The notes under the pieces: model-generated
The model's input: the letters and a program-made list of their open reading frames with translations, nothing else
What the model was told of the DNA's origin: nothing
Databases searched by the model: none
Translations under genes and position numbers: made by a program
NCBI GenBank assembly: GCA_000442015.1
Contig: KE560959.1
Span: 124,001 to 188,000, forward strand
Source of the DNA: Rozella allomycis CSF55
Taxonomy: Eukaryota
DNA: 64,000 nucleotides
Reading direction: 5' to 3'
Shown here: piece after piece, positions 932 to 31,906 of the stretch
How positions within the stretch are numbered: position 1 is the stretch's first letter
Layout of the letters: each line of letters starts with the position of its first letter

Positions 932-2173
932 TTAATAAATTAATTCTTCAATCTCTGATAATAAATATAATGAACCTGTTATTATTATCATCTCCTCTTT
1001 ATCATTTAAACTTGCAATTGCGTCATTTATAGATTGCGCACTGCTTGCCGAAATACCCGGATACAACTGGAACGAAAGATTTGAAAGTTCATGAACGTCG
1101 GCACACGCAATCCAAGGCATATCAATCACTTTATCAAAAGGGACAAACGTTATTTTATCTTCAACTCTCAAAAACTGACCCAACAATTCCTTGTAATCTT
1201 TGCCCTTTTTAAATCCAACGATCCAATGTATCTTTTTTGAAGTATGTGTATTTCTTATGTAATCACTCAACTCCTTTAAACCATCTCTATTATGGGCTCC
1301 ATCAACAAACACCTCTTTGCCATTCACTTTGGTCGAACAATATCTTCCAAAATGATTCAAACTTAAAACATTCGGTAATTCATTTTCGGGATATAGAATT
1401 TTAAAAGCAGTCAAAGCTGTACTTGCATTCATCAGGCAGATAGGTGAAAGAAAAGTGCATGCAACATTATACTCGGTATTGTTCTCTAGCCTCCAATGTA
1501 ATATATCACTATCACTCTTTACACTTTGACCACCCACACAGCTAATTTCATTAATGGAATACATTTCATTGTTCTCGATTTTATACTTTTCAGCTTCTTC
1601 CTTTAATGTTTTCAATGCATTAGGTTCCTTCTGATATCCAATTAATACTTTTTCAGTGTTCGAAAATATACCAGCCTTTTCACGTGCAATGGATACTATG
1701 GTATTACCGAGAAATTCAACATGGTCAAGTCCTATCGATGTAATTATGGACAAACTCTTTCCTTCCAAAACATTAGTAGCATCCAATCGGCCGCCTATAC
1801 CCACTTCAACAATCGCAACGTCTATTTTCCAGTCTTTGAATACTAAAAATGCAGTTGCAGTCTGGATTTCAAAAAGTGTCGCTCCAAACTGATTTGCATT
1901 TTCAACAATCTTCCTTCTCTCCAGATAAAAATCTAAAGAACAAGAATTATTATTAATTTTAATTGCATCTGATGGATGTTTTACATGTGGTGAATAGAAA
2001 GTGCCTATTTTATGATCAGGAAAAGACTCGGAAATGAAATCAGTGAGAAAAGCACACACTGACCCTTTTCCATTGGTTCCTGCTACATGTATAATTTTTG
2101 TAAACGACTTTTGCGGATTTCCTATTGCGTTTAACAGCTTTTGTATTCTTTCTAAACCTAAAGTAATGGCCAT
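932..2173 (-). CDS. FOL3: Dihydrofolate/folylpolyglutamate synthase
   Basis: IHVAGTNGKGS P-loop, EVGIGGRLDATN, DGAHN, ITGSLYL motifs; first plausible ATG gives MAITLGLERI; intronless. Confidence 0.9.
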   Translation of the reverse strand: MAITLGLERIQKLLNAIGNPQKSFTKIIHVAGTNGKGSVCAFLTDFISESFPDHKIGTFYSPHVKHPSDAIKINNNSCSLDFYLERRKIVENANQFGATLFEIQTATAFLVFKDWKIDVAIVEVGIGGRLDATNVLEGKSLSIITSIGLDHVEFLGNTIVSIAREKAGIFSNTEKVLIGYQKEPNALKTLKEEAEKYKIENNEMYSINEISCVGGQSVKSDSDILHWRLENNTEYNVACTFLSPICLMNASTALTAFKILYPENELPNVLSLNHFGRYCSTKVNGKEVFVDGAHNRDGLKELSDYIRNTHTSKKIHWIVGFKKGKDYKELLGQFLRVEDKITFVPFDKVIDMPWIACADVHELSNLSFQLYPGISASSAQSINDAIASLNDKEEMIIITGSLYLLSEIEELIY

Positions 2174-15471: not shown

Positions 15472-15975
15472 TTAAGAGAACAATGCTAATGCGACTATTA
15501 CTGCGATTCCAGTCAATTGGTACTTTAAAGTTGAAGATTCGCTTTCAGATAGCAATGAATCATTTAAGGAAGTGCTGTTATTTCCAGTGCCTTCAATGGG
15601 TTCCATATTAGGACTTTCGCTTCCTGTGTCATGGGCTGATGCTGCGTCTTGAGGTCCATCAGGTTGAAGTTTGCTGGGATCTTTCTTTGAACTCTCTGTT
15701 TCTTCTGAATGCTCATTTCCAGTTTCATTTAGGCCTTTCAAGGCATCGCTTTTCTTTTCACCCGAGCTTGAGTGTTGTCCTTCGTGTTGAGAAGGATTTT
15801 CAGTTCCGTATTGCGATGGGTTTTCATTTCCATACTGCGACGGATTCTCACTTCCATATTGTGAAGGATTTTCTTCATATTGGGATGGATTTTCACTTCC
15901 ATATTGAGATGGGTTTTCTTCATATTGGGAAGGATGTTCTTCGTATTGAGATGGATGTTCATCGGCTTGTTTAGA
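15472..15975 (-). CDS. C-terminal half of a repeat-rich surface protein (ENPSQY repeats, hydrophobic C-tail)
   Basis: Open frame from the N at 15976; eight PSQ-containing repeat units; ends LTGIAVIVALALFS* like a GPI signal or membrane anchor. Confidence 0.7.
   Translation of the reverse strand, partial: SKQADEHPSQYEEHPSQYEENPSQYGSENPSQYEENPSQYGSENPSQYGNENPSQYGTENPSQHEGQHSSSGEKKSDALKGLNETGNEHSEETESSKKDPSKLQPDGPQDAASAHDTGSESPNMEPIEGTGNNSTSLNDSLLSESESSTLKYQLTGIAVIVALALFS
15783..15963 (-). repeat. Coding tandem repeat, 21/24-nt units (E[E/GS]-[H/N]PSQY)
   Basis: Direct repeats visible in DNA and protein. Confidence 0.85.
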
Positions 15976-16353
15976 NCGTATGGGAGTCATTGGCTTTAGG
16001 CTATTATTAACTGGGAAAAACTCCGCCGAGGCCGTATGCTTACTGACACTTTTGGCCTGCATTATCCAATTTTTAATTTTTGTATTCTCCTCGACCTTCG
16101 GATACAATCTTCTATTAAACAAAGGCCTCTTTCAAACCATATGGTTCTACCATCTCCTCTCTAGCAATTCTAATATCATCAATATACAGCATTTCTCCGA
16201 CAGTCTTAATATCATCAACCAAAACTGTGACGGTCTTGTCAGCCTCTGCCAGGACTATTCTTTCTAACTTCAACTCTCTCTGACATTAGACAGGGGTTTG
16301 TTAACNCTTAGCTTTGGGGACCGTACAATGAAAGAATAGAATTGCTCAGCCAC

Positions 16354-22988: not shown

Positions 22989-23061
22989 TAGCAGCGCCAA
23001 GTTTCGATCAAGGGACCTCTGAGTTATGAGCCCAGCGCTCTTCCAACTGAGCTACGCTGCT
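22989..23061 (-). tRNA. Initiator tRNA-Met (CAT)
   Basis: AGCAGCGTAGCTCAGTTGGAAGAGCGCTGGGCTCATAACTCAGAGGTCCCTTGATCGAAACTTGGCGCTGCTA: A1-U72 pair, CAT anticodon, ATCGAAA T-loop, followed by a T5 Pol III terminator. Confidence 0.9.
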
Positions 23062-25991: not shown

Positions 25992-28900
25992 TCACAAACT
26001 TCTACNGGAAGCAAGAACGATAGCATCTTCAGAGTCATTAGAATCATCATCTGAGAGTGTGTAATTGACTTTTTTCTTGTTTCTTTTAGCTTTTGGTGAA
26101 AAGAAGAGAGAGGAAGCATTTCCAGAGTCTTTAAGAGCAGATGGTTTCTTTGGAGTGTCTGAAGGTTTTGATTTCTTTGGAGGAGAGCTATCAATTGAAT
26201 CTTCAGAGTCGGATATTCTGACTTGTTTTCTGCTAGAGAAGAATGAACTCTTTGCAGTAGCTGAAGCGCTTTTAGTACTAGTAGCAGTTGACGCACTTTT
26301 AGCAGTAGTAGCACTCTTAGCAGTAGAAGCACTCTTAGTAGTAGTCTTCTTTGCAGTACTCTTAGTGCTCTTCGTAGCTGTAGTACCAGTGTCTCCTTTT
26401 ATAGTGTCTCCTTTAATGGTGTCTTCTTTTATAGTGTCTTCTTTCATAGTATCACTCCTCTTCACATTACCCTTCTTCGCAGTACCCTTCTTCTTATCAG
26501 AAGTCTTTGGCTTTGAAATGGAAACTCTTTCAATCTTCTTTGCGAGTGAATTAACATTAGAAGAACCCAAAGCCAAATTTAATCTTTCTTCTAGACTGAG
26601 ATCTAAGCTGTAAGCGCTAGTTAGTTTATTATCAACAGGAGATGACCTAGACTCATCTTCATCATCAACGTCGTCATCGTCATCGTTAAGGTCGTCATCG
26701 TCAAGGACATCACTTTCCTCTTCTTCCTCTTTTTCATCTTCTTCATCTTCAACAATTTCTTGAACAACTTCTTCTTTAATGACTTGTTTCTTTTTTCTAG
26801 ATTTCTTTTCTTGAATGTTTAATTTAAAAGTGCTTGTAGTTTCAATTCCTTTATTGAGATTCTATCAGTAGAATAGATTTATTGTTACATTGTATTCTTG
26901 AACAAAATCATCTAAATCATCCAACCATAAATCCTTTGGTGTTTTTTCTAATAGAATTGACAATTCTTTTTCCTTGTTATTCTTTTCATTAATCAACTTT
27001 TCAACCTTTTCTTTTGTTAAATTCAACAATGGCATATTAAGCAAATAATCGAACCCTTTGATTAAAGTGATTTGAGTGAGAGTTACCTATGATTAATGTG
27101 GTTTAAAGCATTATTACCTAATGATTAATGTGGTTTAANTTTTCATCTTCTTCATCTTCAACAATTTCTTGAACAACTTCTTCTTTAATGACTTGTTTCT
27201 TTTTTCTAGATTTCTTTTCTTGAATGTTTAATTTAAAAGTGCTTGTAGTTTCAATTCCTTTATTGAGATTCTATCAGTAGAATAGATTTATTGTTACATT
27301 GTATTCTTGAACAAAATCATCTAAATCATCCAACCATAAATCCTTTGGTGTTTTTTCTAATAGAATTGACAATTCTTTTTCCTTGTTATTCTTTTCATTA
27401 ATCAACTTTTCAACCTTTTCTTTTGTTAAATTCAACAATGGCATATTAAGCAAATAATCGAACCCTTTGATTAATGTTTTGAGTGAGAGTTACCTAATGA
27501 TTAATGATTTAAAGCATTATTACCTATGATTACTAATACCTTCACTTATTACCTATGATTACTATAACCTTCACTGATTACCTTCCTTGTCATCCTTTTC
27601 ATAATCTTTGGATTGTAATTCCTTTTCAACATTAATCTTCAATTTATTCTTAATAACCAAAGTTTCATTAATCAATTCAAGAATAAATCTAGCCTTGTTT
27701 TCCAATCTAGACAGTTCTTTTAATAACTGATTAGAAAGATATTCTTTTCTCTTTTGATAAAAGATTAATCTTAGATTATAAAATTCTTTAATTATTTCTT
27801 CAACATTTAAATATTTCTTTAATCTTCCAAATGAATCAAAACAAACTAAATTCCCACAAGATAATGAAACACTCATTTTGAATTTCTTTTCTAATCCTTC
27901 CTTTTCAATTAAACTCAATTGTTCTCTTGTTAAATTGATCACAAATTTAATATTCTCATCCTTGTGGTATTCTTTAAATGAAAGAATTGTATTATTTTCA
28001 ATTAATGATTCTAAATATTCTTTATAATTTTGAGTCCAACATTTGATTGGCAATTCTGAGATTTCCAAACTAGTTTCATTAATCTTTTTAATGATTCCAT
28101 TTATTTTGTATTTATCTACATCTACTTGTTCTATAACCCCTTTAAACCCCTTGTACCATGGATGCATCTTTTCAATCTCTTTCCCATTAATCATTCTCTT
28201 TATATTCTCAACAAGATCAATTGGATTGTAATTAGGCACAAATGTACTCCATCCAGTCCCTATCCCTTCAGCTCCATTAATCAACGTCATGGGAATAATC
28301 GGTATATAATACTCGGGCTCTATATCCTGTCCATCTTCATTCAAATATTTCAACAAATTATCATCTTCTATTCTAAACAACTTTCTAGCCAATGGTGACA
28401 ACAATGTAAATATATATCTGGGGCTAGCATTATCCTTTCCTTTATGAATGTTAGATTATTGAATTACCTCCTTGAAATCTACTACCAAACTGTCCATTTG
28501 GCATCAACAAATTTATATTATTACTACCTTGATAGTAAAGAAATAAAGTGATTACCTTTAATGAGTTTCAAACAAAGTGATTACCTATTATGATATGCAT
28601 TTCAACTACTTTACCTTGATGAATTAAACTTCAACTACTTTACCTTGATGAATTAAACTCNATTAATAGTAAAGTAACAAAGTGATTACCTTGATGAATT
28701 AAACTTCAACTACTTTACCTTGATGAATTAAACTCTAATCACTTTACCTACAAAGTCTTGCGCCAAGTTGATAATCGTGCCACTAAGACTCACCTCCCCA
28801 TGATGATACGCTGTATGCTCACTCACATACCCAGACAACTGATTCACCTTCACTTCACTCTTCAAATTACGCTTGAAACACGCATAGATAATCTTTCTCT

Positions 28901-31900
28901 GTCCAGGCTTAAATCCATCAACCACACTCGGAATAGATCTAACATTATCTGCAACTGAAAATAATATCAATTCCTTGTTCACAAAATCTTCAACTTTAAT
29001 AGACTTTGTCTTGTGATCCATATACGTCCCTGGCTGGAACTTTCTCAACCACTCCTTTCTATCTTCAATCTTCTTCTTGCTAAACGCCATATCAACCATC
29101 TCTCTATCTCCTTCCTTTACTCCTGAAAATGGTATTCTATGTTCACTCATGGCCTTGAAATACTTGATAGCATCATCCTTTGTACTTGTTCCCAAACCCT
29201 ATTAAAGAGAGTGAAGGGTGAGATTACCTATTAAAGAGTTTAAAATTATTTTACCTATTATTTAATCTCATATCATGTTTTACCTAATATTTAATCTCTT
29301 AACTTACTTTACCTAGTATTTAATGTCTTAACTTACTTTACCTTGTAGTATTTGATTGTCCATCCTATAGTTAAGATTAACATGTCCACTTACCTTGCCC
29401 ATTGTTATTCTTACTCTTCCATTCTTCATACTCTGGAATTGTATAAAAACTTTCAACCTTGTTTCCTTTGGTACATTTCACTATCGGTGTAATAAATTCT
29501 TGTATAAACCCTGGTATCTTTAACAATGATGGCCAAAATTTATCAAACAAATTAATCAACAATCCCTTTATATGAGATCCATCATGATCCTAAATTGAAT
29601 TTAGTAATGCATGTTACCTATTGTTAATGCATTAGTTTAGGGTTACCTATTCTAAATGTACTATAATCATGCTTACCTATTGTTACTCTACTACAATTAT
29701 GCTTACCTATTGTTACTCNAACATTACCTATTATAGAGTTTAAACATGGCATTACCTATTATAGAGTTTAAAACTATTTTACCTAGTATTTAATGTCTTA
29801 ACATAATTTACCTTGTAGTATTTGATTGTCCATCCTATAGTTAAGATTAACATGTTCACTTACCTTGTCCATTGTTATTCTTACTCTTCCATTCTTCATA
29901 CTCTGGAATTGTATAAAAACTTTCAACCTTGTTTCCTTTGGTACATTTCACTATCGGTGTAATAAATTCTTGTATAAACCCTGGTATCTTTAACAATGAT
30001 GGCCAAAATTTATCAAACAAATTAATCAACAATCCCTTTATATGAGATCCATCATGATCCTAAATTGAAGTTAGTAATGCATGTTACCTAATTGTTAATC
30101 TACTACAATCATCGTTACCTATGGTTAATCTACTATAATCATGCTTACTTGATCAGTCATTATCATAACGTGCCCATATCGCAACTCACTCGCACTGGTA
30201 TAATTCTTGCCTTGCTGCAACCCTAAAATTCTTTTAATATTCTGAATTTCTTGATTCTCCAATATTTGCTTAGCAGATGCTTCTCTAACATTCAACAATT
30301 TCCCTCTCAATGGAAACACCCCAAAATAGTCTCTTCCAACTACAGACAACCCTTGCACTGCTAATGTCTTAGCTGAATCCCCTTCTGTCAATATCAATGT
30401 ACACTGCGATGAACTCTTCGTGCCAGCATAGTTCGCATCATCCAACTTTGGTATCCCACTAATCCTACTGGTCTTGTGCCCATCACTCTTCTTCAACATC
30501 TGATTCTGCTTCGCTTGCGCAACATTCAATATATTCTCAACAATCCCAGACTTCAACACCTTTCTCCACCTTCTTCAATCTTTACCTTTTTCATAAATTC
30601 TTCTCCAAGAATACATTTAGAACCAAACGACGATTGCTTCAATGTCATCGTCTCCTTTGTTTGCGAATCAAACGAGGGATTCTCTATCAAACAATTAATA
30701 AACAACGCCATCTGGTTCTTTATTTGAAATGGCTTCAGTGGGGCTGCCTTGTTCTTCTTCTTCGTCGCTTCAACCAACGCACCAACAATCTGATCAGCTA
30801 CATGCGCTACATGCGTTCCTCCCTTGCTAGTACAGATGGAATTCACGAACGATATCTAAACACTCCAACTCTGCATTCTTACTTGCTGGAATTGTCCCTC
30901 TGATATACAAAATCCAACCTCCCATCTGTCACTCTTTTCAAACAAAACAGTCGGCTTCACTCCATTCTCATCTTCCTTCACAAACTGATTCACATAGCTC
31001 TTAAAATCTTTAATCTTTATTCTCTCGCCATTCAAATAAACTTTCACATCCTTCACTACCCCAGCCATATCATACACTCGCTTCACAAACAACTTTTCTA
31101 CATCCTCATCAAACGTCTCCATTCCAAATCTCTTCAAATCTGGCTTAAACGTTATCTACTCATTCAAACTACCCATCTTTACCTTGGTAAAATCATCCTT
31201 GCTATAGTCTACAATCTTTGGCTGTCCAACTTCACTCATATTCTTCTTAAACACCTTTGCAGTCTCAGTTTCATTCTTACTTGTCTAAATTTCTTCTTTT
31301 TGCTAGAATCAGCAGTCTCAACAACAAACTCGGTAGAAAATATATTACACAACTTGGCGCCAAATCCATTTCTACCCCCAGTCACCTTTTTCTGCGAATC
31401 ATTATAATTAGAAGATGTCAACAAATGTCCAAATATCAACTCGGGCACATACACCTTTTCATCCGCATGAACCTCAATCGGTATCCCACGCCCATCATTC
31501 ATCACACTAATCACATTATTCTCTCTATCAATATCTACCCTTATCACCCCCATCCCAGGATCACGTTGCTACTACCACCCAAAAACAACTCTTACCTTGT
31601 TGTCAGCCGCATTCACCAGTATCTCATCAAAGATCTTATAAAATCCAGGCGTATACGTGATATTCTTATACACAAATTTTCCTTGCTCAACAATCCACAT
31701 CCCCTGGGTAATACTCTCCACTGACCCTATATACGTATCCGGACGCAGCAAAATATGCTCCAACTGTGTCTTTTTCTGATACACCTCCTCCACCGGTCGG
31801 TTGTCTCTTTTCTGCTGCAATGGCTTTTTCACACTCTTCTTCACAGGCTGTCTTATGCTTATCTTATTCTTACTGAAGCCGTAAACGATGACTCATAATC

Positions 31901-31906
31901 ACTCAT
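25992..31906 (-). CDS. TOP2: DNA topoisomerase II (assembly includes two duplicated exon blocks at N joins)
   Basis: YQKKTQLEHILLRPDTYIGS, GGRNGFGAK, TEGDSA, PLRGK, MTDQDHDGSH, YYKGLGTS, DGFKPGQRK, YHHGE, ASPRY, GIGTGWS. Confidence 0.97.
27140..27464. repeat. Direct duplicate of 26731-27055 (probable second haplotype at N join 27139)
   Basis: Apparently identical sequence at offset 409. Confidence 0.85.
27465..27581 (-). other. TOP2 intron made of 4 tandem unit introns (29+29+30+29 nt)
   Basis: Each unit GTAA...AG; removal joins DDKEG to FDYLLNMP. Confidence 0.9.
28528..28747 (-). other. TOP2 intron made of tandem unit introns (six complete 28-30 nt units plus two cut by the N at 28661)
   Basis: AG|GTAA junctions at unit spacing; removal joins QDFVG to SNNINLL. 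Confidence 0.88.
29199..29341 (-). other. TOP2 intron made of 5 tandem unit introns (29+29+29+27+29 nt)
   Basis: Removal joins IKYYK to GLGTS. Confidence 0.9.
29812..30059. repeat. Direct duplicate of 29342-29589 (probable second haplotype at N join 29719)
   Basis: Offset 470; two substitutions seen, one intronic and one synonymous. Confidence 0.85.
30060..30148 (-). other. TOP2 intron made of 3 tandem unit introns (30+31+28 nt)
   Basis: Removal joins MTDQ to DHDGSH. Confidence 0.9.

Follow-up and report, generated by a model that had tools for sequence, protein, structure and literature searches.

Introduction

Recursive splicing, the stepwise removal of an intervening sequence through zero-length exons, has been described in flies and in a fungus. 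The ratchet points of Drosophila divide introns of 11-133 kb into segments of 2,596-63,580 nt, and a single intron can hold as many as six of these points (10.1101/006163). In the fission yeast Schizosaccharomyces pombe a zero-length exon lies within a 336-nt intron of the non-coding RNA SPNCRNA.445 (10.1101/226894). Here we report on a stretch of 64,000 nt (hereafter the window) of the genome of the early-branching fungal parasite Rozella allomycis CSF55 (assembly GCA_000442015.1, contig KE560959.1, positions 124,001 to 188,000), in which the DNA topoisomerase II gene (TOP2) is interrupted by a 143-nt intervening sequence, array C, made up of five abutting GTAA...TAG units of 29, 29, 29, 27, and 29 nt (window 29341-29199, minus strand). 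A very long host intron (>11 kb in Drosophila), which is typical of ratchet points although not strictly defining, is not found here, since array C measures 143 nt and the longest curated array 340 nt. Such stacked mini-introns are apparently undescribed: no report of stacked minimal introns was found in a literature search outside which most subscription journals and supplements lay, and in their accessible parts two papers that mention introns of R. allomycis do so without stacking (PMC8476143; PMC6349667).

Tandem mini-introns in TOP2

The original prediction, made from the sequence alone, described array C as five unit introns splitting a YYK-GLGTS motif, and this observation of tandem mini-introns in TOP2 is confirmed. 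The predicted sequence, its 143-nt length and the internal unit boundaries matched exactly on re-reading, and the 23-nt micro-exon and single 29-nt intron claimed upstream of the array are both present. Deletion of all five units yields GWTIKYYK/GLGTS, which is contiguous in fungal TOP2, and the point of removal corresponds to residues 657-664/665 of a fungal TOP2 protein (P0005). The host gene is identified by its match to yeast Top2 (E 9e-59), and the exon following array C is 100% identical to P0001, named a Rozella allomycis protein by its source, the next match being at most 74% identical. When one or more units are retained, translation of the test segment runs into a stop by codon 75-99 in each of the 31 combinations. 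Judged from the protein, TOP2 is restored only by full removal, so that no trace of the internal sites would be expected in mature mRNA.

The period reported by Tandem Repeats Finder (TRF) at array C is 29. First-order Markov simulation (30 runs, 128 kb each) never chained more than 2 junctions of YAG or AAG directly followed by GTA and spaced 26-32 nt apart, whereas chains of 5 occur in the actual window. Both unit 1 and unit 2 contain a perfect GTAAGT (29336-29331 and 29307-29302, minus strand) at 24 nt from their own AG, a distance slightly below the usual minimum intron length here.

A genome-wide class of arrays

The feature is real and genome-wide. The pattern TAGGTAA-N17-28-TAGGTAA has 161 matches in the genome vs. 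5 for the reversed control, and related linked-junction patterns gave 112 vs. 5 and 220 vs. 5. Arrays were collected from 32 stretches around the listed matches, a subset of the matching contigs. The gene models are our own, allow zero-length exons and have no RNA check behind them, and the loci were picked for intact TAG/GTAA pairs. From the 103 arrays called, 14 were removed (unit outside 25-34 nt, flank <20 nt, or adjacent N) and another 4 by eye, leaving at least 85 curated arrays of 2-12 units at 32 loci, with 308 units and 223 internal junctions. All 308 units measure 26-33 nt, like ordinary introns here, in a set filtered at 25-34 nt under a model prior of ca. 29 nt; none of the 103 arrays initially called had a credible double-length unit. 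When stacking was forbidden and long introns were given a flat prior, the model still placed many outer boundaries identically, those of array C included.

Pfam matches were obtained for 34 of the 38 exons tested from array-bearing genes, and the hosts named in this way comprise dyneins, PRP8, TRA1, clathrin, UBA1, RPN1, SPT16, MTR4, HYDIN- and CFAP-like proteins, and ATP4. The longest array (12 units, 340 nt; L054:1705-2044, plus strand, L numbers being our loci) lies in a CFAP43-like gene; its first half is G-rich and its end C-rich. PRP8, itself a core protein of the spliceosome, carries arrays of 4 and 2 units (L053:661 and 1362, minus strand). An 8-unit array occurs in a phage-type RNA polymerase gene (L057:870-1100, plus strand), of which the downstream exon apparently lacks one base within a run of G, a probable homopolymer error; a 20-nt unit called beside it was dropped as a model artefact. 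Arrays are not confined to late gene positions, as 4 out of 10 fall within the first 500 coding nt of ATG-anchored models, nor do they mimic intergenic DNA, where G-to-C polarity was seen in only 4 out of 12 stretches.

The last units end in AAG in 45 of the 85 arrays vs. 22 of the 223 internal units, partly a bias of the TAG search, and single introns at AG/G sites do so in 21 out of 42 cases. A 29-nt intron of RPN1 (L049:1696-1668, minus strand) appears to end in TG instead of AG, which would be a non-canonical acceptor or a sequencing error; removals of 26, 32, and 50 nt are also in frame. The peptide left by the 29-nt removal, GQ/AIDTVGQAG, is, judged by resemblance, the best-looking of the lengths tried.

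Indirect evidence for the use of internal splice sites

There is indirect support for the array units acting as separate introns, and on these grounds we consider recursive splicing through zero-length exons, with stepwise removal of units, the best and a likely reading. A 3′ splice site that abuts a 5′ splice site, i.e., a zero-length exon, is found at four TAG/GTAA junctions in array C and at 223 in the 85 arrays. All 223 are intact, whereas a rough neutral model predicts ca. 92 intact junctions at the adjacent interior identity of 0.63, and junctions broken in silico were visible as a long unit in 60 out of 85 trials. In this comparison within one genome, the internal sites are more constrained than their surroundings.

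Further statistics have the appearance of selection. A branch-like motif, with a peak at -6/-7, occurs in 72% of the first and 63% of the middle units vs. 37% of shuffled sequences, and AG is found at 4-7 nt before internal acceptors 19 times where 59 are expected. G at position +5 is present in 17 of the 223 internal donors, compared to 18 of the 85 outer donors and 88 of 342 single introns; because +5G creates an AAG just after the internal acceptor, its scarcity counts as avoidance of a rival site. In 159 kb of modelled exons, strings of the form GTAA...TAG or GTAA...AAG at 26, 28, 29, or 31 nt number 17 vs. 43 expected, while control donors are not depleted (GCAA, 117 vs. 126; GTTA, 117 vs. 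112), as would be expected if any such string were cut whatever its context. A comparable depletion of AG 26-32 nt into exons starting with GTA (3/27 vs. 106/302) was not used because values at 34-40 nt were equally low (4/27).

Introns of the U2 type are indicated by the GT...AG termini, the branch-like motif and the presence of U1 and U2 small nuclear RNAs with canonical ends, the match to U1 (69 bits) falling just below the cut-off of 69.5. Scored against the U1 consensus (the U1 end itself was observed in the genome), internal donors reach 6.35 out of 9 vs. 5.74 for single introns. An RNA run matched by species label only (0.00 word share) gave, at 80% likeness to the ATP4 locus with its 4-unit array (L065), six short pieces of <90% identity and no joints, which speaks neither for nor against the use of internal sites.

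Origin and growth of the arrays

Among 77 metagenome TOP2 loci with the motif, 5 have a plain intron of 33-148 nt at the site of array C, another has its intron one base away, and 71 show no interruption. Because a plain intron occurs there in some loci, the intron position is, judged from these sequences, old and the stacking derived. Stacked introns were not seen in 80 metagenome TOP2 loci (≤69% identical); three regular-expression matches among them (L075-L077) proved by eye to be purine-rich coding sequence. The exon junction reads AG/G at 46 of the 61 arrays of at least three units. Single introns have this junction less often, in 33 of 167 cases within the genes concerned and in 9 of 175 elsewhere. 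The preference of the arrays would follow from unit duplication regenerating both splice sites in this context.

Across the 85 arrays, identity is 0.63 between adjacent units, 0.52 between non-adjacent units and 0.48 between first and last units, against a background of 0.50, and only 1 of the 223 adjacent pairs is identical. The original prediction that neighbouring units share halves holds for three of the four pairs in array C but fails for units 3 and 4, which are at background level (interior identities 0.91, 0.73, 0.55, and 0.59; background mean 0.50); units 4 and 5 have their last 11 nt in common. Growth by stepwise duplication of neighbouring units is supported by this decay of identity and by whole-unit differences between versions of the same array. 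The stepwise part of the proposed unequal crossing-over is thereby retained, although crossing-over as such is indistinguishable from slippage or break repair.

TOP2 carries four arrays, and no other gene of the window contains a credible one (Table 1). The second version of array C has no counterparts of units 2 and 3 and carries an extra derivative of unit 4. A 248-nt block beside array C has 2 base differences between the versions, whereas the arrays differ by whole units. Single-N joins (window 27139, 28661, 29719, and many other loci) often repeat 30-1100 nt, so that exons are doubled in gene models. As N-joined duplicates, the versions that lie side by side across these joins are probably alleles. 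A minisatellite, or variable number tandem repeat (VNTR), consists of tandem units of 10-60 nt of which the copy number varies between alleles. The arrays conform to this in their tandem units and whole-unit differences between versions, with the allelic status suggested by the N-joined duplicates.

Table 1. Features of the TOP2 region (window coordinates).
Feature	Position	Strand	Remarks
TOP2 host gene (DNA topoisomerase II)	26007..31906	-	Exon blocks repeated across single-N joins; 3′ limit provisional
Ordinary single intron, 29 nt	29365..29393	-	
Micro-exon, 23 nt	29342..29364	-	(G)WTIKYYK, AAG at end; tblastn 8/8 identity, P0005 657-664
Array C, unit 1, 29 nt	29313..29341	-	GTAA...TAG
Array C, unit 2, 29 nt	29284..29312	-	Differs from unit 1 only at positions 17 and 26
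Array C, unit 3, 29 nt	29255..29283	-	3′ half in common with unit 2
Array C, unit 4, 27 nt	29228..29254	-	Retention keeps the frame but brings a stop
Array C, unit 5, 29 nt	29199..29227	-	Interior C-rich, 0 G, 9 C
Exon downstream of array C	28748..29198	-	GLGTS...QDFV, first base G; 100% identity to P0001
Array C, second version (probable allele)	29720..29811	-	Full units of 29/27/28 nt and start of a fourth, cut by N at 29719
Array B, version 1	30060..30148	-	30/31/28 nt; at TDQ/DHDG
Array B, version 2	29590..29718	-	At least 5 units (partial + 30/30/29/28 nt)
Array D	28528..28747	-	At FVG/SNN; two overlapping versions meeting at N 28661
Array E	27465..27581	-	29/29/30/29 nt; second version ends at 27056

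Elsewhere in the window, a degenerate 21-24 nt tandem repeat at 15780-15961, ending near an N at 15976, was modelled as a minus-strand coding repeat, and the Rfam scan returned only a tRNA gene (22989-23061, minus strand).

Base skew around the arrays

The G-C skew drops from the first to the last unit in 58 of the 61 arrays of at least three units, and more so with more units; in array C the G/C counts per unit are 3/1, 4/0, 3/1, 0/2, and 0/9. The bias runs ca. 250 nt into both flanking exons and is mirror-symmetric, with the arrays at its centre. At four-fold sites 50-200 nt upstream of arrays the fractions of G and T are 0.24-0.30 and 0.39-0.44, and downstream those of A and G are 0.44-0.49 and 0.08-0.12. 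The step in third-position G+T (upstream minus downstream) is positive in 44 out of 54 larger arrays (mean 0.16) and in 20 out of 22 two-unit pairs (mean 0.22), compared to ca. 0.01 at single introns and random positions. When only G/G sites of the same genes are compared, the step is 0.21 at arrays (61/68 positive) vs. 0.035 at single introns (25/42). The rough reverse-complement symmetry of the flanking bias points to a process at the DNA level, a hotspot, centred on the arrays. Candidate processes are break repair, replication, and nucleosome phasing, any of which may be either a cause or an effect of the arrays.

Array-bearing long genes (L033-L061) show strong waves of third-position G+T and GC and a weak rise in autocorrelation at ca. 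600 nt, and long genes without arrays in the window have flat third-position profiles. Single introns lose G along genes, from 0.21 in the first 500 coding nt to 0.10 beyond 2 kb (ATG models).

A wider joint reading, which we put forward only tentatively, is that the arrays are intron minisatellites, in which as many as 12 minimal introns form a hypervariable stack and each is excised singly despite the exon junction complex (EJC). The stacks would mark intragenic DNA elements that have left a mirror mutation bias on ca. 250 nt of exon per side. Stacking would let a compact genome retain 60-340 nt of non-coding DNA in long essential genes, and the number of introns per gene would still segregate. 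The elements might, as part of this same doubtful reading, be hotspots of breakage or recombination, sites of replication, or patches free of nucleosomes.

Proposed mechanism and alternative explanations

In the mechanism that we propose, an ancestral single intron at an AG/G junction would have multiplied in place, giving a minisatellite in which every repeat corresponds to a complete minimal intron. The tiny introns would be defined locally by the spliceosome, through the GTAA donor, a branch-like TRA 6-7 nt before the end and an AG at 26-33 nt, and we infer that in vivo the units are excised singly through zero-length exons. As each cut would regenerate AG/GT or AG/G, any order of removal would give the same YYK/GLG mRNA; products of incomplete splicing would carry a premature stop and would presumably decay. 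For expansion, two requirements would have to coincide: the G/G context of the junction, and a place where the DNA changes more than elsewhere and unequally on its two strands.

Several observations weigh against stepwise removal. RPL7 of R. allomycis has introns of 238 and 150 nt (L148:1247-1484 and 1752-1901, plus strand) without internal AGGT; the spliceosome here can thus span 143 nt in one step and size alone is no compulsion, which also rules out a spliceosome limited to ca. 33 nt. Genes for the EJC-related proteins Mago and SAP18 are present in the genome, and in Drosophila the EJC represses the re-use of regenerated splice sites (PMC8184009); stepwise removal leaves unexplained how this block would be evaded. 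The last units are pyrimidine-rich (purine fraction 0.39 vs. 0.60 in first units), a composition that would also suit the 3′ end of one long intron. Single introns are not depleted in AG at -4 to -7 (83 vs. 73), so that the signal in internal units is no generic mark of acceptors. Array C itself, which lies between arrays B and D, has hardly any flanking skew (0.61 vs. 0.59; step 0.02). Finally, the loci were chosen for intact junctions in gene models of our own making, and units within one array are related, by which p-values are overstated.

The most serious rival, although we regard it as unlikely, is that the outer donor is joined to the last acceptor in one step, the internal AG/GT sites being passive relics of recent unit duplication that owe their intactness to rapid turnover and conversion and not to use. 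The long RPL7 introns, the EJC genes and the C/T-rich last units fit this explanation, as do the commoner +5G at outer than at internal donors and the fast turnover of the arrays. However, no fused unit was found at 223 junctions where ca. 131 would be expected to be broken, and with 1 of 223 adjacent pairs identical turnover has not homogenised the unit interiors. One-step removal is also hard to reconcile with the branch-like motifs and avoided rival AGs of internal units and with the avoidance of unit-like strings even in exons. The arrays also do not have the signature of long introns: both RPL7 introns combine GTAAGT with CTAAY, whereas +5G at the outer donor together with CTRAY in the last unit occurs in only 2 out of 85 arrays. 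Nor is there a fold-back that joins the array ends. A long intron shortened by a hairpin is ruled out for array C (z = +0.19, no stable pairing of the outer sites), and across the class the folding of 61 arrays of 3-7 units was no more stable than that of shuffled or chimeric sequences (p 0.47 and 0.36).

Regarding other long introns, 40 of the 426 single introns in the first model were long and by eye resemble bridges over intergenic DNA, and an intron pattern of 40-80 nt with strong signals gave 9 matches vs. 121 in a control that was not composition-matched. The second RPL7 intron has C/D-box-like motifs by eye; Rfam returned no match in L148.

Slightly less probable still is a mixed use, in which AG/GT sites of dual specificity are used at random so that one, several or all units are removed per step and only the sum matters, as in human UBC, which provides a precedent (PMC10809524). 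In its favour, introns of 26-33 nt as well as of 150 and 238 nt can be spliced in this organism, and every route would lead to the same mRNA. Against it, the tight unit length and the depletion in exons at only 26-31 nt argue that the nearest AG dominates.

That the assembler chained alleles or paralogous introns into arrays is very improbable. The assembly does repeat blocks of alleles on either side of single-N joins, of which several fall within or next to arrays. However, array C contains no N, its units differ and have only AG/GT between them, and the versions on both sides of N joins are themselves arrays. Units become less alike the further apart they lie, and their composition shifts gradually from one end of an array to the other. 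The separate record behind P0001 (a 2103-nt contig) starts directly behind array C and stops at array E, i.e., it breaks at arrays too.

Implications

If the units are spliced singly, recursive splicing would operate at the smallest size that a spliceosome can handle, and in essential genes (TOP2, PRP8, UBA1, clathrin, RPN1, dyneins). The arrays would then offer a short, PCR-sized test bed for the re-use or protection of regenerated AG/GT sites, for the EJC at a junction spacing of 29 nt and for the order in which adjacent introns are removed. They would also represent intron gain by whole-intron duplication that is still segregating, and the intron counts and gene models of a key early-branching fungus would be wrong at array sites. 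The flanking skew would connect the expansion of introns with a local, mappable process in the DNA.

Comparison with known systems

Introners, or introner-like elements, are near-identical intron copies at dispersed new sites. The arrays share with them the multiplication of introns, but the units in Rozella multiply in place, and an identity between arrays of 0.50 on average (99th percentile 0.73; 3000 pairs) rules introners out. Closer in its logic is intron gain by tandem genomic duplication, where duplication of an AG/GT context makes new splice sites in one step; in that case, however, an exonic segment is copied and becomes one intron, whereas in Rozella a whole existing intron would be copied repeatedly (PMC3265369).

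The stwintrons of Ascomycota are likewise complex intervening sequences removed by consecutive U2 reactions, for which small duplications have been proposed as the origin, but they are nested and require an inside-out order, whereas the Rozella units abut, have their own three signals each and would not be forced into any order (PMC7138796). A stwintron is ruled out here, as no intron interrupts the donor, branch or acceptor of another and each unit has an intact GTAA and AG. Human UBC also contains a tandem array bounded by AG/GT sites, of which the units are coding and optional, unlike those of Rozella, which are non-coding and must all be removed (PMC10809524).

With SPNCRNA.445 of S. pombe the arrays have in common recursive splicing in a fungus, predicted from sequence in the case of Rozella, and a short intron; the genome of S. 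pombe has two instances (10.1101/226894), whereas in Rozella there are at least 85 arrays, each with 2-12 units and located in genes for conserved proteins. Like the ratchet points of Drosophila, the arrays juxtapose AG and GT without an exon and lead to one final mRNA, but ratchet points are conserved sites with a U2AF-type TT at -5/-6 (10.1101/006163). The Rozella segments, at 26-33 nt, are ca. 1/600 the size of those in Drosophila, the whole intron consists of units, and these units are duplicates of one another that vary in number from version to version.
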